Source: a virus
Taxonomy: Duplodnaviria > Heunggongvirae > Uroviricota > Caudoviricetes
DNA length: 35,491 nucleotides
Direction: 5' to 3' (one strand)
Virus record (IMG/VR): IMGVR_UViG_2671180778_000014
Location: 1 to 35,491 of that record
Shown here: positions 529 to 35,491 of the stretch, piece by piece
Layout: every line of letters starts with the position of its first letter
How positions within the stretch are numbered: position 1 is the stretch's first letter
The notes under the pieces: model-generated
What the model saw: only the letters and a program-made list of their open reading frames with translations
Databases searched by the model: none
Told to the model about the DNA's origin: nothing
Program-made: the position numbers and the translations under genes

Positions 529-654
529 ATGAAACAATTTCATGATGGCATTTCATCCAAGACATTCAAGAAAGAATATAGCGGATTGTGTATTAACTGG
601 ATTGATTTGATTGGTGCGGTTGTGTTTGGTTTGGTAATCAGCATCAACTTTTAA
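529..654 (+). CDS. small membrane peptide (41 aa), speculative
   Basis: ATG at 529 preceded by GGGGTGAG; translation MKQFHDGISSKTFKKEYSGLCINWIDLIGAVVFGLVISINF has a C-terminal hydrophobic helix. Confidence 0.25.
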   Translation: MKQFHDGISSKTFKKEYSGLCINWIDLIGAVVFGLVISINF

Positions 655-3808: not shown

Positions 3809-4165
3809 TTAATTATTGTAGTTTTGGAAACCAGTAAGATCGCAAAATGTTTCTGTGTCATGTACCGGAGAACGATGTTCTGCCTCGTCAGAGAAAATGT
3901 TGGCTACCGGAGATTCTGCGTTAACTTCCGGTACTTCTTCAACTACTGGCTGAACTTCTTCAATGACTGGTTCCACTACCGGAGTTTCTTCTACTGGTTC
4001 CGGTTCTTTCATTGCTTCAACCAGTGACGGATCTGCCTCATCAAATACCACTTTATCTTCTGCGGTATATTTGTCTATAATGAAAAAATGGTCAGAAATA
4101 TAGCTAACGTCGCCAGCATATTCTAACAAAAAAGCGCCCACCAGAGGCGCTTTTGTTTTATCCAT
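3809..4165 (-). CDS. hypothetical Pro/Glu-rich protein (uncertain start)
   Basis: ORF with EPEPVEETPVVEPVIEEVQPVVEEVPEV low-complexity segment; 5' end overlaps a terminator hairpin, so the true start and reality are uncertain. Confidence 0.3.
   Translation of the reverse strand: MDKTKAPLVGAFLLEYAGDVSYISDHFFIIDKYTAEDKVVFDEADPSLVEAMKEPEPVEETPVVEPVIEEVQPVVEEVPEVNAESPVANIFSDEAEHRSPVHDTETFCDLTGFQNYNN
4130..4157 (-). terminator. rho-independent terminator after the endolysin gene
   Basis: minus-strand AGCGCC-tctggtg-GGCGCT followed by TTTTTTGTT. Confidence 0.5.
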
Positions 4166-4511
4166 TCCACCGTGATTTTTTTGATCTGGAATCAATATGC
4201 GTAAAGGTTTTATATTTTCCTAAGCCGTATTGAGTAGGATATTTCCCATCAAGATAAGCATGAACAATATCAGGCGAGACACCCTTGATAACAATGTCAG
4301 CCGCGCGGCCTCGAACATGATAGCTATTGGTTGCGCCGCCTACATTCTTGTTATGAGTCGGGCAACGGTTCCCACTGTTAATAATCACTGGTTTACCGAA
4401 GTGCTCTCGTACATCCTCAAGAATCACCAGTAATTCAGCGTCGATTGTATCATAATCACATTTTCCGCATTTACATTTAAATTCCTTGCGAGAAAAATGC
4501 TTACTTAACAT
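4158..4511 (-). CDS. endolysin, zinc peptidase M15-like (YcbK/DUF882-type)
   Basis: FSRKEFKCKCGKC ... NSGNRCPTHNKNVGGATNSYHVRGRAADI ... THID matches the His/Asp zinc-binding pattern of M15-type cell-wall peptidases; RBS AAGGGGG. Confidence 0.65.
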   Translation of the reverse strand: MLSKHFSRKEFKCKCGKCDYDTIDAELLVILEDVREHFGKPVIINSGNRCPTHNKNVGGATNSYHVRGRAADIVIKGVSPDIVHAYLDGKYPTQYGLGKYKTFTHIDSRSKKSRWNG

Positions 4512-5591: not shown

Positions 5592-5762
5592 TTAGCCCCC
5601 TAATAACGAAAAGACCCCCGCCAGTGTCCTTAGCAATTGTTCATCCACGGTCATAGCCGGGAGTTCAAGCCCAAAGGACGTTAGCAGAGGTCTAATAGCT
5701 ACGTTATAAGTGAGGGCGACAATCAAGAGATAACCAAAATATTTCTTAAGTTTATTCTTCAT
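5592..5762 (-). CDS. small membrane protein (56 aa), possible holin-like
   Basis: RBS AAAGGGGTG then ATG; MKNKLKKYFGYLLIVALTYNVAIRPLL has a hydrophobic helix; translationally coupled to the downstream gene. Confidence 0.35.
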   Translation of the reverse strand: MKNKLKKYFGYLLIVALTYNVAIRPLLTSFGLELPAMTVDEQLLRTLAGVFSLLGG

Positions 5763-5780: not shown

Positions 5781-6059
5781 TTATTTTTGTTTGAGTATGT
5801 CGAGAACTTGGTCAAATTTGGCGTCCATCGCAACCACTTTCTTCTCTATACCGTGTAGTGTTTGTTCCATTTGGTAAACACGTTCAGCAATCTGAGTATG
5901 GTTATTCTGCATCGTCTCAAACTTCTGGTTTAACAATGCGTCGCTGGATTCCAATTTCGACAATCTATTTTCAGTTGCTAATTGATTTCGGTGAAGTCTC
6001 CAAAGACCACCACAAATTAAGGCGATAACACCGATACCGCCATATATAATTTCAGTCAT
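5781..6059 (-). CDS. membrane-anchored coiled-coil protein (spanin- or holin-like)
   Basis: N-terminal hydrophobic segment IIYGGIGVIALICGGLW followed by a heptad-rich region; GGGGG RBS. Confidence 0.45.
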   Translation of the reverse strand: MTEIIYGGIGVIALICGGLWRLHRNQLATENRLSKLESSDALLNQKFETMQNNHTQIAERVYQMEQTLHGIEKKVVAMDAKFDQVLDILKQK

Positions 6060-25613: not shown

Positions 25614-27518
25614 TTAGAACGATGTTACCCAGCTACGGCCTCTATTTGGGCGTCTGGCGATGTTTTTACGTTGTGGTCGTGTGATTGGCTTATTTTCTTC
25701 GATTTGCTCGTCAGATTGCGTTTCAGGAGCTTTTACGGGTTCTTCTGGTTCACGGTTCAAACTATCTTTGATGGCTTCGAGTTTTTCCCATGACATTTTA
25801 TTGAGTACATGGCGAGAAGCAGCATAGGAATAAGCCAGGCAGTCGAGAGCCTCGTTTCGTTGCTGACCAACTTTTACCCAACGTGTGGTATTACCCTGCC
25901 GTTTCAACTGTTCAGAAAGCAATTGCTCGCAATAGTCATCAGGAACGTCACCAATCTGGAAGACAGTGTGAGGATCTCCATCTCTCAAGTTCCGGTTAAT
26001 CATTTCGCGGATCATCGTCTTAAGGTTGTTTACGCCCAGAATTTTAAGGGTAAAACCACCTGTTCTTGTGTCTTTTACCGGAAGGATTGGAGCATCAACA
26101 TTGCTTGCGCCCTTAATGGCTGATAGGTTTTGCCACCGACTACAAAAGCGGTAGATCACTTGCGTAGCACGTCCGTTTGATGAGTCCACGAAAGCGGATA
26201 GCATCGGGATTCGTTGACCGGATCGGGTATAGAATTTAGCTTTCAGGAAGTTGTAAAGCTGGTCATATGCTGGTGATTCGTGGCGTTCGCAGTTCACATC
26301 ATAGAATGATCGGTGATCAACTACGCATATCCCTTTACGCGAGATACCCAGCAAGGTAGATTCCAGACGGTCTTTTTGCTGGTCAACTCCACCTACCAGA
26401 GCCAGAACATCATCAGGGATATTGTCTAAGCTAATATCAGTTTTCAGCGTTTCCAGTTCGTCGGCTGTGCGGTCTTCGTTAAGATCATCGAAGGTTTCAC
26501 CTAAGACAGTGTTATAGAACGTTGCCAGTGACATATTCGCGTAGCTATCAGCAAAATCCACCACACACGCACGGATAGAACTAAACGGAGACATAAGGCG
26601 GTTAGCATGAAAACCGATTACTTCCGCATTAGGTTCGGTGGCGATCCATTCTCCCTTAGCAACAGCACGTAGGCGATCCCCTTCGGTCCAGTCGGTTTCA
26701 CATTCAGGGCAACGATAAACGGCTGTGTCGGGCGAAGGCAGTGATTTACCATTAACTTGATGCCAATCAAAATGGACGTTACTCCATTCCATTACGTGTC
26801 TGTGTCCGCAATGCTGGCATGGAACATAGTATTTTCGTTTATCTGATAGCTCGAATTGTTGGTTGATCGCCCCATCTCGCGACGTTGGAGTAGAAGCAAT
26901 TACGATCCGTGCATCTTCCCCGAAAGTGGTTGCTCGTTGTTCCGCTAGCTGGATCGGGTTCCCTTCATCTGATTCATCAGCCGCATCAACTTCATCAAGA
27001 ATAATCAAAGGCAGTGTCTTACCGCGCAAGTGTGATGGACTGTTCAGCGACATGAAATACATGAATGATCCGTTACGAAGCTGAATAATCGATGAGTTGT
27101 TAACAGCATTACGGTCTGATTTGTCGGTGATCATCGCTTTTAATTCTGGCGTAGCCTCTAATACTGGCTTCACCTTACCAGCGATCCAAGAATTTAGTTC
27201 TCTAACGTTTGATTGCAACACCCCTATATTCGTAGGGTTACTGGCGATCCTGTGGAAGATAATTCCGTTAAGAATCATAGTCTTACCCAACTGCGCCGAA
27301 CATTTAAACACAATTTTTCTACGGTCTTCGGTGATCGCGTCCATCATTCCACGTTGGAAGGGATGCAATTTAATTAGAGATCCGGCTTTAACGCCATCGG
27401 TAGCCACTACGTTAGCCTCTACCCATTCGCTAGGTTTCATGGCTTTAGGCGGTCGAATTGCAGCAGAGATATTTTTAAGAATCTTTTTTAATTTAGCCTT
27501 ATTAGAAATCAGTTTCAT
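25614..27518 (-). CDS. terminase large subunit (lambda gpA family)
   Basis: 634 aa; N-terminal PSEWVEANVV ... LHPFQRGMMDA and C-terminal RNEALDCLAYSYAA match the recalled lambda gpA pattern (AVEWADANYY ... LPFQRAIMNA ... RRNEALDCFVYALAA); Walker A-like QLGKT. Confidence 0.85.
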   Translation of the reverse strand: MKLISNKAKLKKILKNISAAIRPPKAMKPSEWVEANVVATDGVKAGSLIKLHPFQRGMMDAITEDRRKIVFKCSAQLGKTMILNGIIFHRIASNPTNIGVLQSNVRELNSWIAGKVKPVLEATPELKAMITDKSDRNAVNNSSIIQLRNGSFMYFMSLNSPSHLRGKTLPLIILDEVDAADESDEGNPIQLAEQRATTFGEDARIVIASTPTSRDGAINQQFELSDKRKYYVPCQHCGHRHVMEWSNVHFDWHQVNGKSLPSPDTAVYRCPECETDWTEGDRLRAVAKGEWIATEPNAEVIGFHANRLMSPFSSIRACVVDFADSYANMSLATFYNTVLGETFDDLNEDRTADELETLKTDISLDNIPDDVLALVGGVDQQKDRLESTLLGISRKGICVVDHRSFYDVNCERHESPAYDQLYNFLKAKFYTRSGQRIPMLSAFVDSSNGRATQVIYRFCSRWQNLSAIKGASNVDAPILPVKDTRTGGFTLKILGVNNLKTMIREMINRNLRDGDPHTVFQIGDVPDDYCEQLLSEQLKRQGNTTRWVKVGQQRNEALDCLAYSYAASRHVLNKMSWEKLEAIKDSLNREPEEPVKAPETQSDEQIEENKPITRPQRKNIARRPNRGRSWVTSF

Positions 27519-30919: not shown

Positions 30920-30965
30920 AGTGGTAATCCTCAAAAAGAAAGTTAATCAAAGTAATTCTGATATT

Positions 30966-30972
30966 ATTTATA
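30966..30972 (-). promoter_or_regulatory. candidate -10 element (TATAAAT) of recurring promoter motif
   Basis: minus-strand CTCTTATAAATAATA about 50 nt upstream of the start at 30919. Confidence 0.3.
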
Positions 30973-31224
30973 AGAGAAAATTCTTGATGATTTTGGAAGG
31001 GATGGATTCAGTCGGGCTAAAGCCCTCCTTCATAGATTTGATTAAAAGACCAGCAAACGTAACTCGGATCTTATAGTTAATATAGTTATCTTTGAAGAAA
31101 TAATAATCAGGAAGCAATTTCAGCAACCGCAGGTTGCGATCCCGAAGGGATAACCAATACCTTTCTAGAAAGTGATTGTTACTCACTTCGTTCGTTTACT
31201 AGAATCAGTTATCATCTAGTATTA

Positions 31225-31595
31225 AATCCCTTTCTAAGAAAATCCTTTCAAAAGTGAGTGAACGCCGTAGGCGTGAACGTGAGCGAAGCGAACTATCCAA
31301 TCCCTTTCGAATCCTGCTTGCAGGTCTTAGAAGGTGTTGGTGGGCGCTACGCGCACGGCTACGCCGTATTCTTTTTGCGAGATCTTTCTTGAACGTAGTG
31401 AGAGAAAGCGAGCAAAAAGGAGAACGTTAGTTCGAATTTTATATTCTATGGTCTGTTGGGTATAATCCCTTTCAAGATCATACACTTACGTGATTGAAGT
31501 GTAGGGTTAGTGTAGGTGTGTAGGTTTCATAGTGTAGGTTTGAGAGTGTTATAGTGTAGGTTTACTGGCTAGTGTAGTGTAGGCCAATCCCTTTA
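31225..31595 (+). repeat. dispersed direct repeats of the 10-mer AATCCCTTT(C/A)
   Basis: copies at 31225, 31299, 31464 and 31586, a degenerate copy at 31241, and an inverted copy at 35108-35117. Confidence 0.6.
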
Positions 31596-31617
31596 AAGTG
31601 TAGGTGTGTAGTGTAGG
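31499..31617 (+). repeat. iteron array of the heptamer GTGTAGG (about 10 copies, mostly GTGTAGGTT)
   Basis: copies at 31499, 31510, 31518, 31532, 31554, 31577, 31598, 31611 plus GTGTAGT variants at 31572 and 31606, followed by an AT-rich stretch. Confidence 0.7.
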
Positions 31618-31813
31618 TTTTCTATCAAAAATTTTGACAAAAATTATTGTATATTATTTAACCAAAAAATCACCAAAAAGCGGCGTAAATTCATGATTTA
31701 AAAGAAATTTTCAAAAGATCTCCGTGCCATAATAGGTTATAAAGGTTGATAATCATTATTTGCCATTTTCAAACAAAAATTTTGATACACTTTTCTCGCT
31801 TAGATCATTGGTA

Positions 31814-31842
31814 TTGACAAGTGTCAAGAACTATTTTATACT
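31814..31842 (+). promoter_or_regulatory. consensus sigma70 promoter (TTGACA - 17 nt - TATACT)
   Basis: TTGACA at 31814-31819, 17-nt spacer, TATACT at 31837-31842. Confidence 0.6.
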
Positions 31843-31849
31843 TTTTCTC

Positions 31850-32007
31850 ACTGGTAGGGGTTGAAATTTTCCAAACAATCCACATATAGATGATAAGCAT
31901 GATTTTTTCGTGTATAAATACATGCATGAAAAATGATTGTTCACTTCTGAAAACCTCCTGACTCACTGTTAACTCATACAGCACTGGTTAGATACACAGT
32001 GCTTTTT
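31850..32007 (+). ncRNA. candidate small non-coding RNA (promoter-to-terminator unit)
   Basis: about 160 nt between the consensus promoter and an intrinsic terminator (AGCACTG ... CAGTGCT + TTTTT at 31980-32007); no RBS-supported ORF. Confidence 0.3.
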
Positions 32008-32131
32008 CGGTTGAATATTGTACGGATTGATTAATTATTAATCTTCTCTTTAGCAATTCGTGCTCCCTCTGATCGGATATACAGTGGTTTTACAGAGTTT
32101 TTGAAAATCATTTTTATAAATAGAATTGTTC

Positions 32132-32150
32132 AGAGCGAAAAGCTCTTTTT
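32132..32150 (+). terminator. terminator/attenuator hairpin
   Basis: AGAGC-gaaa-GCTCT followed by TTTTT, 35 nt upstream of the 60-aa gene. Confidence 0.4.
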
Positions 32151-32186
32151 AAAAAAATCATTATTCCAGATTTAGGAGGATTCAAG

Positions 32187-32369
32187 ATGGCACGACCTGT
32201 TAAGTTCACTCGTGAAATCGTTTTAGAAATGGCAAAGCGTTATTTTGAACTGACACCTGATGTAGTGATGGGTGATTGGTTTAAAGGTGAAGGCATTGAT
32301 CAATCAACCTTCCATAAACTTTTAAAGAAGTATGAAATTCGCGTAAAGATTACCGCCGAGGTGTGGTAA
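32187..32369 (+). CDS. small HTH protein (paralog of the 77-aa protein)
   Basis: 60 aa; ARPVKFTREIVLEMAKRY ... GIDQSTFHKLLKKY parallels RGRPARFNAEQMADIAYAYY ... GISIAQFYKNMKK; RBS AGGAGG. Confidence 0.5.
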   Translation: MARPVKFTREIVLEMAKRYFELTPDVVMGDWFKGEGIDQSTFHKLLKKYEIRVKITAEVW

Positions 32370-33746: not shown

Positions 33747-33768
33747 AAAAGGGACTCCGAAGAGTCCC
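33745..33768 (-). terminator. terminator hairpin (minus-strand orientation, possibly bidirectional)
   Basis: GGGACTC-cgaa-GAGTCCC preceded by AAAAAA on the plus strand, which gives a T-run on the minus strand. Confidence 0.4.
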
Positions 33769-33845
33769 TAGTAAGTTTAGGTTAGGTTTGCACAACAAAG
33801 ATGAGGTTATAATGAACATAATGCTACATTATTCTTTAAAGCCAG

Positions 33846-33871
33846 AAAAATAACCGCCCCCGAAGGGGCGG
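33846..33871 (-). terminator. rho-independent terminator
   Basis: minus-strand CCGCCCC-ttcg-GGGGCGG followed by TTATTTTT. Confidence 0.4.
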
Positions 33872-34028
33872 GAGGATTAATACTCAATCTATACTTGTTA
33901 TGTTTTTATGTTGTATAGATCACTGACTATGAAAACACTGTACTGGATGTGTTTTATGGCTTTTAATCGGGAATCCTCAAAGAAGATCCCCTGTTAATAA
34001 CCATAAGGAGAAAAGGCAGATTACACTA

Positions 34029-34202
34029 TTATTTAGTATCCTTTTTACAGCAACTAAAAAGAATAAACAGGATTAAGCATACCCAGCCGTAAGGCGTACC
34101 GATTAGAAATTTGAAAAATACCACCAGCGATATAAAAATCAATTTAATGCCAGCGACGATAGTCAAAAACAGCAGAGTAGCAAAGTAGACAAAAAGATCC
34201 AT
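34029..34202 (-). CDS. small membrane protein (57 aa)
   Basis: RBS AGAGGA 7 nt upstream of ATG; MDLFVYFATLLFLTIVAGIKLIFISLVVFFKFLIGTPYGWVCLILFILFSCCKKDTK is strongly hydrophobic with two predicted helices. Confidence 0.35.
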   Translation of the reverse strand: MDLFVYFATLLFLTIVAGIKLIFISLVVFFKFLIGTPYGWVCLILFILFSCCKKDTK

Positions 34203-34255
34203 AGATAATCCTCTTTGAAAACGACCATCATCTATAGTTCAATTCATCGATTTAA

Positions 34256-34357
34256 TTAATGATACTTGAAAGCGTTACACACAGCAGAAATGCCAATATG
34301 TGCCAGTGAATATACGATAGTTAATCCTACAGCCAGATAAATTAAAAATTCAACCAT
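34256..34357 (-). CDS. small hydrophobic peptide (33 aa)
   Basis: RBS GAGGA then ATG; MVEFLIYLAVGLTIVYSLAHIGISAVCNAFKYH. Confidence 0.3.
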   Translation of the reverse strand: MVEFLIYLAVGLTIVYSLAHIGISAVCNAFKYH

Positions 34358-34454
34358 AGGTAAATCCTCAAATAAGAAAAAGGTTAGCGGGGGGTGATTC
34401 CCCCCGTAGACGTTGACCATCAACATCTTTCATACATTTATTTATAACGAGTTT

Positions 34455-35006
34455 TTACGACACATCAAATTCATCGTCTTCTTCTGGTTCTTGTTCCGGT
34501 TCATCCATTAATGGTAATTCTTCTTCCTCGTCTTCTCCCAAATCTGCATTTTCGAACAAGTCCCCTACTTCATTTAAACGACGCTCGATGATCTCCCTTA
34601 GCTTATTCTTCAATGTTTTCTGGTCAGTGGCAGATTCGAGAATTTCTAAAGCGTCGATTGTGGCGATCTGCAAAATAGTCTGCTTCACTTTTCCGCAATA
34701 TTCCGCTAGTTGCTGTTCTACATACCCGACCGGAATCAGGAGATTCATTGCTTCCTGGTTCTCTCGTTCGGCTGCGTCCGCTAATGCTCTCTCGCGGCGT
34801 AATTTCTCTACGTCAATTTGTTCCTTGACAGTAGTTTCCTTGAGCGGGTTGATGATATTTTTTAATACCCACTCGGTCCCCTCTTTGGCTGGTACGCGTC
34901 GTGTATTGGTATTAAATGGCATTCCTCGTTCTTGCCATTTCTTAGCGGCGTTAATTGTATAGCCGTATAAGCGGGAAATTTCTGTAAGGGTTAATTCTTC
35001 TTTCAT
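34455..35006 (-). CDS. terminase small subunit candidate (lambda Nu1-like winged HTH)
   Basis: ATG at 35006 preceded by GGAGG; LTLTEISRLYGYTINAAKKWQERGMPF parallels the recalled Nu1 N-terminus (QLADIFGASIRTIQNWQEQGMPV); about 180 aa with acidic C-terminus. Confidence 0.45.
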   Translation of the reverse strand: MKEELTLTEISRLYGYTINAAKKWQERGMPFNTNTRRVPAKEGTEWVLKNIINPLKETTVKEQIDVEKLRRERALADAAERENQEAMNLLIPVGYVEQQLAEYCGKVKQTILQIATIDALEILESATDQKTLKNKLREIIERRLNEVGDLFENADLGEDEEEELPLMDEPEQEPEEDDEFDVS

Positions 35007-35491
35007 CCGGTTATCCTCCATTAAATTTGCGTAAAATTATTTATCTGATCTGCGCATTCAGGAGAGCGCCTAAAACGCTTTATAACGAAGGGAAAGATCG
35101 AGGCGGGGAAAGGGATTGGCTGGTGTTAATAGTCGCGTAGCGACCGCGCTGGTGGGCTGCACTGCACCTGTTTTGAAATCTCACACGCACATCAAAAACC
35201 GGGGTGCCGAAAACTCGCTTTATTTCACCCGTGGAACAGTACCTTTTGATTTTGTCAAGTCTTTTTTATAAATAATCGAAAATATTTTTCACACGAGGGC
35301 AAATCATGAATACTAAAGATATTAAGATTGACTTTGAAACTGTTGATGACGTTCGGGAACATCGCATTGATTCTACTGGCTGAATCTTCCAGCTTACTAA
35401 CCCCCCTATTGGATTGATTATCTATGTAGCAGAAGATGACGTGTACGCTATATGGGATGGACAGGATGAGTTTAAAGGCGGGAATAGCCAT

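Follow-up and report, generated by a model that had tools for sequence, protein, structure and literature searches.

Class I holins, such as S105 of phage lambda and Y of phage P2, and class II holins (pinholins), such as S68 of phage 21, are small inner-membrane proteins with three or two transmembrane (TM) helices. They assume an N-out/C-in or an N-in/C-in topology, end in a basic cytoplasmic C-terminus and diverge very fast in sequence. At a given position in the genome, one holin is notoriously often replaced by a non-orthologous one, and a holin gene can be located away from the endolysin gene, as is the case for t and e of phage T4. Type I toxins of Escherichia coli (Hok, TisB, Ibs and GhoT/OrtT), which are 19–57 aa in length, consist almost entirely of a TM helix, and structure in their mRNAs occludes the start of translation. 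Temperate phages also encode small inner-membrane exclusion proteins such as gp15 of HK97, the product of a low-GC, terminator-bounded insert that provides a precedent for morons in the sense of Juhala and Hendrix (see PMC3594210 for both the definition and gp15).

We analyzed a 35,491-nt stretch of viral DNA (IMG/VR record IMGVR_UViG_2671180778_000014, referred to below as the window), in which a first-pass annotation had pointed to two ORFs, of 33 and 57 codons, with good Shine-Dalgarno (SD) sequences. Both ORFs, here designated orf33 and orf57, are indeed present where it had placed them. It had missed that they are encoded on the minus strand, that they represent one allele of a polymorphic slot, and that no promoter was detected between them and the upstream gene for the small terminase subunit. 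These two ORFs constitute an unannotated new family of narrow distribution, which falls within the familiar class of small phage inner-membrane proteins. The functions originally proposed for them, holin, antiholin, exclusion factor and toxin-like peptide, are all plausible candidates, with the toxin-like option being the least supported of the four.

The prophage and the position of the two genes

The window is a nearly complete ~35-kb serine-integrase prophage of E. coli. According to exact-sequence look-ups, E. coli chromosomes are the home of this element, which is found inserted within three host genes, hicB, ycdX and codB; the region with orf33 and orf57 is present in 63 of 5,426 complete E. 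coli genomes. The element encodes a large serine integrase (996–2690), an M15 peptidase endolysin (4158–4511), tail genes, a protease-capsid fusion together with a lambda-type portal, a gpA-type large terminase TerL (25614–27518), and a Rha-like antirepressor. Among sequenced phages, the sole relative is Escherichia phage DCP80, whose TerL is 44% identical and whose small terminase subunit (TerS) is 32% identical. A search of the literature on this prophage and its integration into hicB and ycdX found nothing relevant.

The two ORFs are located at one end of the prophage, where they directly follow, in the same orientation, the Nu1-like gene for the small terminase subunit, TerS (34455..35021, minus strand, 188 aa), which is the first gene of the unit that contains them. 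The TerS product belongs to PHROG 57, 'terminase small subunit' (E=1.6e-15, residues 2–173), with a weak match to Pfam Phage_Nu1, and PGAP gives the name 'terminase small subunit' to a 54%-identical allele. A scan of genome contigs for wider TerS relatives returned none, and scans of viral and metagenome data produced only close E. coli relatives and the same 54%-identical allele. The TerS-orf33-orf57 unit converges on a plus-strand operon whose products are an HTH protein of 60 aa and proteins of 333 and 80 aa. TerS is found 7 kb from TerL, at the extreme end of the prophage, with an antirepressor-like gene and the convergent operon in between, and the two terminase genes are likewise separated in DCP80. 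No late-promoter motif common to the upstream regions of TerS and TerL was found. In two genomes, the end comprising TerS, the small ORFs and an LprI-family gene is the sole survivor of an IS-mediated deletion of the prophage.

orf33 (34357..34256, minus strand) encodes the 33-aa peptide MVEFLIYLAVGLTIVYSLAHIGISAVCNAFKYH (GRAVY 1.30) and is preceded by the SD sequence GAGGA (34369–34365), located 7 nt before the ATG. orf57 (34202..34029, minus strand) encodes the 57-aa peptide MDLFVYFATLLFLTIVAGIKLIFISLVVFFKFLIGTPYGWVCLILFILFSCCKKDTK (GRAVY 1.61) and has the SD sequence AGAGGA (34214–34209) 6 nt before its ATG. The initial description of these peptides as very hydrophobic was correct; they are the most hydrophobic products of the entire element. 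A single TM helix (F4–V26) is predicted in orf33, whose C-terminus reads KYH, whereas orf57 comprises ~50 consecutive hydrophobic residues (L3–C52), contains a Gly-Thr-Pro-Tyr-Gly turn and ends in the basic sequence KKDTK. We infer that orf33 crosses the membrane once in the N-out/C-in orientation and that orf57 forms a two-helix hairpin with both termini inside. The AlphaFold model of orf57, a single long helix with pLDDT of 78 and pTM of 0.43, is uninformative on topology.

Several other short ORFs and repeats were observed in the window. The first-pass annotation had listed 445–654 and 5592–5762 as similar small membrane ORFs. The former proved to be two ORFs of 26 and 41 codons (445–525 and 529–654, plus strand), another tiny hydrophobic pair at the integrase end, in the same frame with a single stop codon between them, and the latter, a 56-aa ORF that abuts the next gene, is only moderately to weakly hydrophobic. 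The 41-aa ORF (529–654) is a gene call in 137 index blocks and is always found upstream of the serine integrase. An ORF-poor stretch of ~1.25 kb (30934–32187) contains five to six copies of CCAATCCCTTTC (31154–31595, predominantly in plus-strand orientation), and an exact copy is also present upstream of TerS on the minus strand (35108–35119). In total, the window has 11 matches to this sequence against 3.3 expected, and its copies may be iterons, operators or terminase-binding sites.

Evidence for coding

ORFs that combine an SD sequence with a predicted TM segment are common by chance. A scan of the window detected 20 of them in the range of 25–130 codons, most located out of frame inside long genes, so this pattern alone proves nothing and the comparative data have to decide. 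Outside the long genes, an SD sequence is associated with a strong TM segment only in orf33, orf57, a 26-aa ORF and a signal-peptide protein, and no plus-strand ORF of more than 25 codons overlaps orf33 or orf57.

For the comparison, we aligned 22 related E. coli prophage copies, leaving out one truncated remnant (locus L030). Neither frame is interrupted in any of the 22 copies, with 12–14% of the sites within the ORFs segregating; over 23 loci, orf33 is intact in 22 and orf57 in all. There is not a single indel in the 329 nt from the start of orf33 to the stop of orf57, versus ~17 indel events in 377 nt of the flanks (p ~2e-5). Variation in the ORFs is concentrated at third codon positions. 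In orf33, 9 of the 14 variable sites are synonymous and 5 non-synonymous (expected synonymous fraction 0.24; p=0.0014), and in orf57 the counts are 12 and 10 among 22 sites (expected synonymous fraction 0.23; p=0.0011), which gives 21 synonymous sites out of 36 for the two ORFs together (combined p=5e-6). Of the six possible frames of each ORF, it is the proposed one in which synonymous changes are most numerous. Open frames, lack of indels and the frame-specific excess of synonymous changes together identify orf33 and orf57 as protein-coding sequences under purifying selection, and we consider it highly probable that both are real membrane-protein genes. Lack of conservation in related genomes had been named at the outset as the observation that would speak against these ORFs; both turned out to be conserved.

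The same data bear on the possibility that orf33 and orf57 are open by chance, in a non-coding, AT-rich region in which only RNA structure is conserved. The frequency of fortuitous SD-plus-TM ORFs in the window is compatible with this explanation, as are the good folding of the region (z=-5.4) and the absence of both ORFs from RefSeq/PGAP annotation of the class-1 genomes inspected. Nevertheless, it is extremely unlikely, because it does not account for a synonymous excess specific to one frame, for variation at third positions, or for the absence of indels and stop codons from 22 copies. The two ORFs had originally been reported as absent from the ORF list of the window; this is true and extends to RefSeq/PGAP, but the absence reflects a length threshold together with the PGAP omission, as other public gene calls list both of them (orf57 in 598 index blocks, orf33 in 183). 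They therefore represent a concrete case of selected small membrane-protein genes that are missing from standard (RefSeq) annotation.

Two alternative gene models were considered and rejected. A 56-codon version of orf33 that starts at 34426 lacks an SD sequence and spans both hairpins located between TerS and orf33; in addition, indels in this flank are not multiples of three and the upstream ATG is missing in 15 loci. Fusion of orf33 with orf57 by frameshifting or read-through is incompatible with the closure of the orf57 frame at 34238, 17 nt past the orf33 stop codon.

The remnant excluded from the alignment, L030, has been truncated by an IS element and shows seven private differences, all of them inside orf33 and orf57, of which two are synonymous, four are non-synonymous and one is a frameshift. 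This apparent decay suggests that the constraint could be tied to the live phage, although another dead remnant, L033, has retained both ORFs intact.

A slot with interchangeable contents

The ~350-nt cassette formed by orf33 and orf57 is only one allele of its slot. In other copies of the prophage, the segment 34377..34038, which extends exactly from the orf33 SD sequence to three codons before the orf57 stop, is replaced by unrelated DNA that encodes, at the same position and on the same strand, a single three-TM-helix protein of either 94 or 92 aa (92–98 aa when all alleles are counted). The flanks, including the upstream hairpins and ~290 nt downstream, are 82–95% identical across alleles, and TerS is 97% identical between the window, a two-ORF copy, and locus L031, a 94-aa copy. 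Common to both alleles are the tandem hairpins, the GAGGA..CUAUGG start region, the '..K(D/Q)TK-stop' end, the 3' stem-loop and the terminator. Our survey of the slot comprised ~70 locus records, with many contigs represented twice, and six records that lacked the downstream anchor were not typed. Each typable record contains either the two-ORF cassette or the 92/94-aa gene, with the exception of L058, in which the three-TM gene is frameshifted, and none of the slots is empty. Distant relatives that encode proteins of 95 and 98 aa have the identical slot architecture. Only a handful of further members (93–98 aa, 31–43% identity), which occupy the same slot wherever their context is available, emerged from a full HMMER search of 1.8 billion representative proteins with the three-helix profile; the members of the three-helix family are P0007, P0015, P0020–22 and P0025.

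Neither orf33, orf57 nor the three-helix family had a match in Pfam, PHROGs, NCBIfam or PADLOC. The nearest score to a holin family was obtained for the 92-aa allele only, with NCBIfam holin_1 (E=0.063; 13.8 bits versus a cutoff of 150). Homologues of orf57 were found only at identities of at least 93% and only in E. coli. A tblastn search of 50,697 phage records found nothing for orf57 or for a member of the three-helix family, and the same was true of a blastn search of phages with the region.

Added together, orf33 and orf57 (90 aa in total) have about the length of the three-helix protein (92–98 aa) and an equal number of TM helices. The N-out/C-in orf33 and the N-in/C-in orf57 would jointly reproduce the N-out/C-in topology predicted for the single protein, and this match indicates that the two peptides probably act together in the inner membrane. 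In contrast, comparisons of the sequences themselves gave no support for common ancestry. The hmmsearch scores of orf33, orf57 and their concatenation against three-helix HMMs were inside the distributions obtained with shuffled sequences; in hhalign, only the last 12–14 residues, which are encoded by the shared C-terminal codons, could be aligned; and BLASTP between the two-ORF and three-helix proteins did not support homology either. Five of the six pairwise shuffle tests were null (z <2.3), as compared to z=11–15 for true family members. The remaining one, the concatenated ORFs against the 92-aa allele with BLOSUM62, gave z=4.6 (p ~0.002), which fails correction for multiple testing. As far as can be judged from sequence, the cassette and the three-helix protein appear to be positional and topological equivalents and not demonstrated homologues.

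These results also argue against the possibility that a once-continuous three-helix gene was broken by a mutation or an insertion, with orf33 and orf57 as the remaining parts of a recent pseudogene. Such an origin would explain why the start region, the final codons and the total topology coincide with those of the single-gene alleles, and both the z=4.6 score and the frameshifted allele in L058, which splits at the same loop into 33 aa and 63 aa, are in its favor. We nonetheless regard it as improbable, given that the profile tests and all other pairwise tests were negative, that the second ORF possesses its own strong SD sequence and ATG, and that both halves have evolved under purifying selection with no indels over 22 diverged copies. 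The cassette is probably a two-polypeptide functional equivalent of the single-gene allele; with homology unsupported, it is position and topology that this equivalence is based on.

The 92-aa allele in locus L057 is flanked by a 17-nt direct repeat, GATACTAAATAATAGTG (1929–1945 and 2320–2336), and a diverged copy of the repeat is found past the TerS stop in the window (34426–34452; the other window position concerned is 34024–34040) and in other loci. These repeats resemble the remains of a tandem cassette that has been lost, or a recombination joint for cassette exchange.

The presence of either the peptide pair or the three-helix protein within identical regulatory flanks of a single prophage backbone amounts to a natural experiment. 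The locus is suited to testing the interchangeability of unrelated small membrane proteins, as well as lysis timing versus exclusion. Its broader impact is limited by the restriction of the family to a single E. coli prophage lineage and by the familiar kind of gene involved.

Transcript structure and candidate functions

The hairpins that bracket the two ORFs, described as terminator-like in the first-pass annotation, are real, and their stems are maintained through compensatory changes. Hairpin 1, with a 9-bp stem in the minimum free energy fold (34408..34428, minus strand), is located just past the TerS stop codon. In relatives, its AGA..UCU pairing is changed to GGG..CCU, an unrelated AGAGCU/AGCUCU stem is present in the distant relative L061, and one U.G pair is compatible with minus-strand RNA only. 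Hairpin 2 (34388..34406, minus strand) has a G/C-rich 7-bp stem, seen in variants that retain pairing (GGGGGG/CCCCCC, GGGGGA/UCCCCC and GGGGAG/CUCCCC), and is followed by a short, offset U-tract, CUAACCUUUUUCUUAUUU, which leads straight into the orf33 SD sequence. A consensus terminator scan did not call hairpin 2, which is likely to be a leaky terminator or an mRNA stabilizer. In loci L006 and L025, IS4-family (IS10-like) elements are inserted at an identical position within hairpin 2; they sever the cassette from TerS, yet both small ORFs are intact.

Between the two ORFs, a predicted hairpin (34188..34248, minus strand; dG -18.9 kcal/mol, z=-2.2) exposes the orf57 SD sequence (34214–34209) in its loop and contains the orf57 AUG in its stem. 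Only 1 of the 53 positions of the spacer (34203–34255) is variable, whereas the ORFs have 36 variable positions out of 276 (Fisher p=0.016); with so little variation in the spacer, covariation is uninformative for this hairpin. By burying the AUG, it would damp the translation of orf57.

Immediately downstream of orf57, there is a conserved 3'-UTR stem-loop (33954..34006, minus strand; dG -25.3 kcal/mol, z=-3.9) with compensatory CG<->UA exchanges (six versus six sequences), GU/AU switches and no broken pairs; it is also present in L061, where its stems have changed further. A second 3'-UTR hairpin, GAUCUAUAC...GUAUAGAUU (33886..33921, minus strand), was seen in the consensus fold and is mostly invariant, so that covariation evidence for it is weak. 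The TerS-orf33-orf57 unit is closed by an intrinsic terminator detected by the terminator scan (33844..33871, minus strand), in which the hairpin CCGCCCC-UUCG-GGGGCGG (33854–33871) is followed by UUAUUUUUCU and shows a compensatory C-G to U-A change in relatives. Since the G.U pairs fit minus-strand RNA only, these structures act in the minus-strand transcript. Searches of Rfam at permissive and gathering thresholds returned no match in the region. The convergent plus-strand gene for the 80-aa protein has a further hairpin (33750–33769) directly behind its stop codon, with a T-run on the minus strand only; of the two hairpins between the convergent units, neither has a plus-strand T-run.

A consensus scan detected no minus-strand promoter between TerS and orf33, and relatives do not conserve the single candidate from a relaxed scan, TTGATG-16-TATAAA at 34468–34441. 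TerS is a packaging gene, and such genes are as a rule expressed late. With no conserved promoter of its own, the cassette would be transcribed together with TerS by reading through the weak hairpin terminator, late in lytic growth.

Late expression would suit a holin-like function (membrane hole formation or lysis timing), which we tentatively regard as the most likely job of the cassette, at somewhat less than an even chance. This assignment is favored because the M15 endolysin (4158–4511) has neither a TM segment nor a signal sequence and its neighbors are devoid of TM segments and lipoboxes, so that no membrane protein adjoins it; because no other product of the element is as hydrophobic as orf33 and orf57; and because their slot is core-like and holins are prone to replacement. 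The apparent decay of both ORFs in the remnant L030 is a further hint in this direction. Both peptides combine TM helices with a charged C-terminus (KKDTK in orf57, KYH in orf33), as is typical of the class, although a cytoplasmic tail of only five residues is short for a holin. A location next to the endolysin gene, as in a typical lysis cassette, was not observed: the cassette (34029–34357) is ~30 kb away on the prophage map, a distance that is reduced to an estimated 6 kb across att in the circular form. Other candidates are located nearer to the endolysin, namely 5781–6059, which encodes a 92-aa protein with an N-terminal TM segment and a coiled coil, and the above-mentioned 5592–5762. Absence of a sequence match to any holin family, the terminator hairpin ahead of the cassette, which argues for low expression, and the unsupported homology of the two ORFs to the three-helix family also weigh against a holin-like role. 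In a more specific version, which appears rather unlikely, orf33 and orf57 would form a bipartite holin, with the one-helix and two-helix peptides assembling into an equivalent of a class I three-helix holin, and the intercistronic hairpin would set their ratio and hence lysis timing. If correct, such a holin would be naturally exchangeable with a single-chain version at one locus.

Exchange of alleles between near-identical flanks is also typical of exclusion and immunity cassettes, and unrelated alleles swapped within a single host species are what diversifying selection would produce. The two peptides could thus be products of a prophage-expressed moron that, in the manner of HK97 gp15 or T4 Imm, insert into the lysogen's inner membrane and prevent superinfecting phages from delivering their DNA, or otherwise protect or modify the host; we see this as possible but doubtful, a close second to the holin-like role. 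The cassette is located at the cargo-rich end of the prophage, beside att and a variable gene for an LprI-family lysozyme inhibitor. Its GC content is 33%, versus 44% in TerS and 42% in the window, and it is followed by a terminator (33854–33871), so that deviating composition and an own terminator, two hallmarks of morons, are both found here. Furthermore, the host genes ycdX and hicAB point towards TerS in the integrated prophage and might feed transcription into the unit. However, no promoter was detected ahead of the cassette, where a terminator hairpin is located instead, and the sole promoter candidate is not conserved among relatives. Typically, a moron is found in only a subset of related phages, whereas every typable locus has an occupied slot and only the allele differs. 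The apparent decay of the ORFs in the dead remnant L030 (though not in L033) and the lack of a PADLOC match also count against a moron. Alternatively, both alleles may represent a new family of small membrane exclusion proteins that are swapped as cassettes between RNA-structured flanks.

Finally, one or both peptides might be type I toxin-like components of an addiction or abortive-infection module that is held off by mRNA structure and a plus-strand antisense RNA. In size and hydrophobicity they resemble type I toxins, a hairpin sequesters the start codon of orf57, the spacer is nearly invariant, the 3' UTR is long and structured, and two promoter-like sites are present on the plus strand, TTGAAA-17-AAAAAT (34111–34139), which came from the consensus scan, and TTGAAA-17-TTCAAT (34215–34243), which was noticed by eye. 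These sites are weak, no plus-strand terminator follows them, and, as they are contained in constrained sequence, their conservation is uninformative. There was no match to Hok/Gef, Ldr, TisB, Ibs, GhoT/OrtT or any Rfam antitoxin RNA. Strong SD sequences on both ORFs and an alternative allele that encodes a 92–98-aa three-helix protein, unlike type I toxins, make this function improbable.

Compared with the described systems, the cassette resembles class I and class II holins in that its products are predicted to be small inner-membrane proteins with a similar number of TM helices, topology and basic C-terminus. It differs from them in having no membership in a holin family, no adjacent endolysin gene, a tail of five residues and no dual-start motif and, from class I holins in particular, in the division of its three helices over two polypeptides. 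Like the exclusion proteins HK97 gp15, T4 Imm and P22 SieA, the cassette proteins are small and predicted to be membrane-bound, have a narrow taxonomic range and lack an enzymatic domain; there is no sequence similarity to any of the three. HK97 gp15 is expressed from a promoter of its own and is missing in related phages, in contrast to the cassette, for which no promoter was found and whose slot is always occupied. With type I toxins, the peptides share size, nearly complete TM character and structure at the start site, but they have no family match and no identified antisense RNA, their SD sequences are strong, and their allelic partner is 92–98 aa long. Unlike the cassette, that partner, the three-helix protein of the slot, is a single polypeptide, itself uncharacterized, and the most notable detail of the locus is this natural alternation of two-peptide and one-protein alleles inside conserved RNA-structured flanks.
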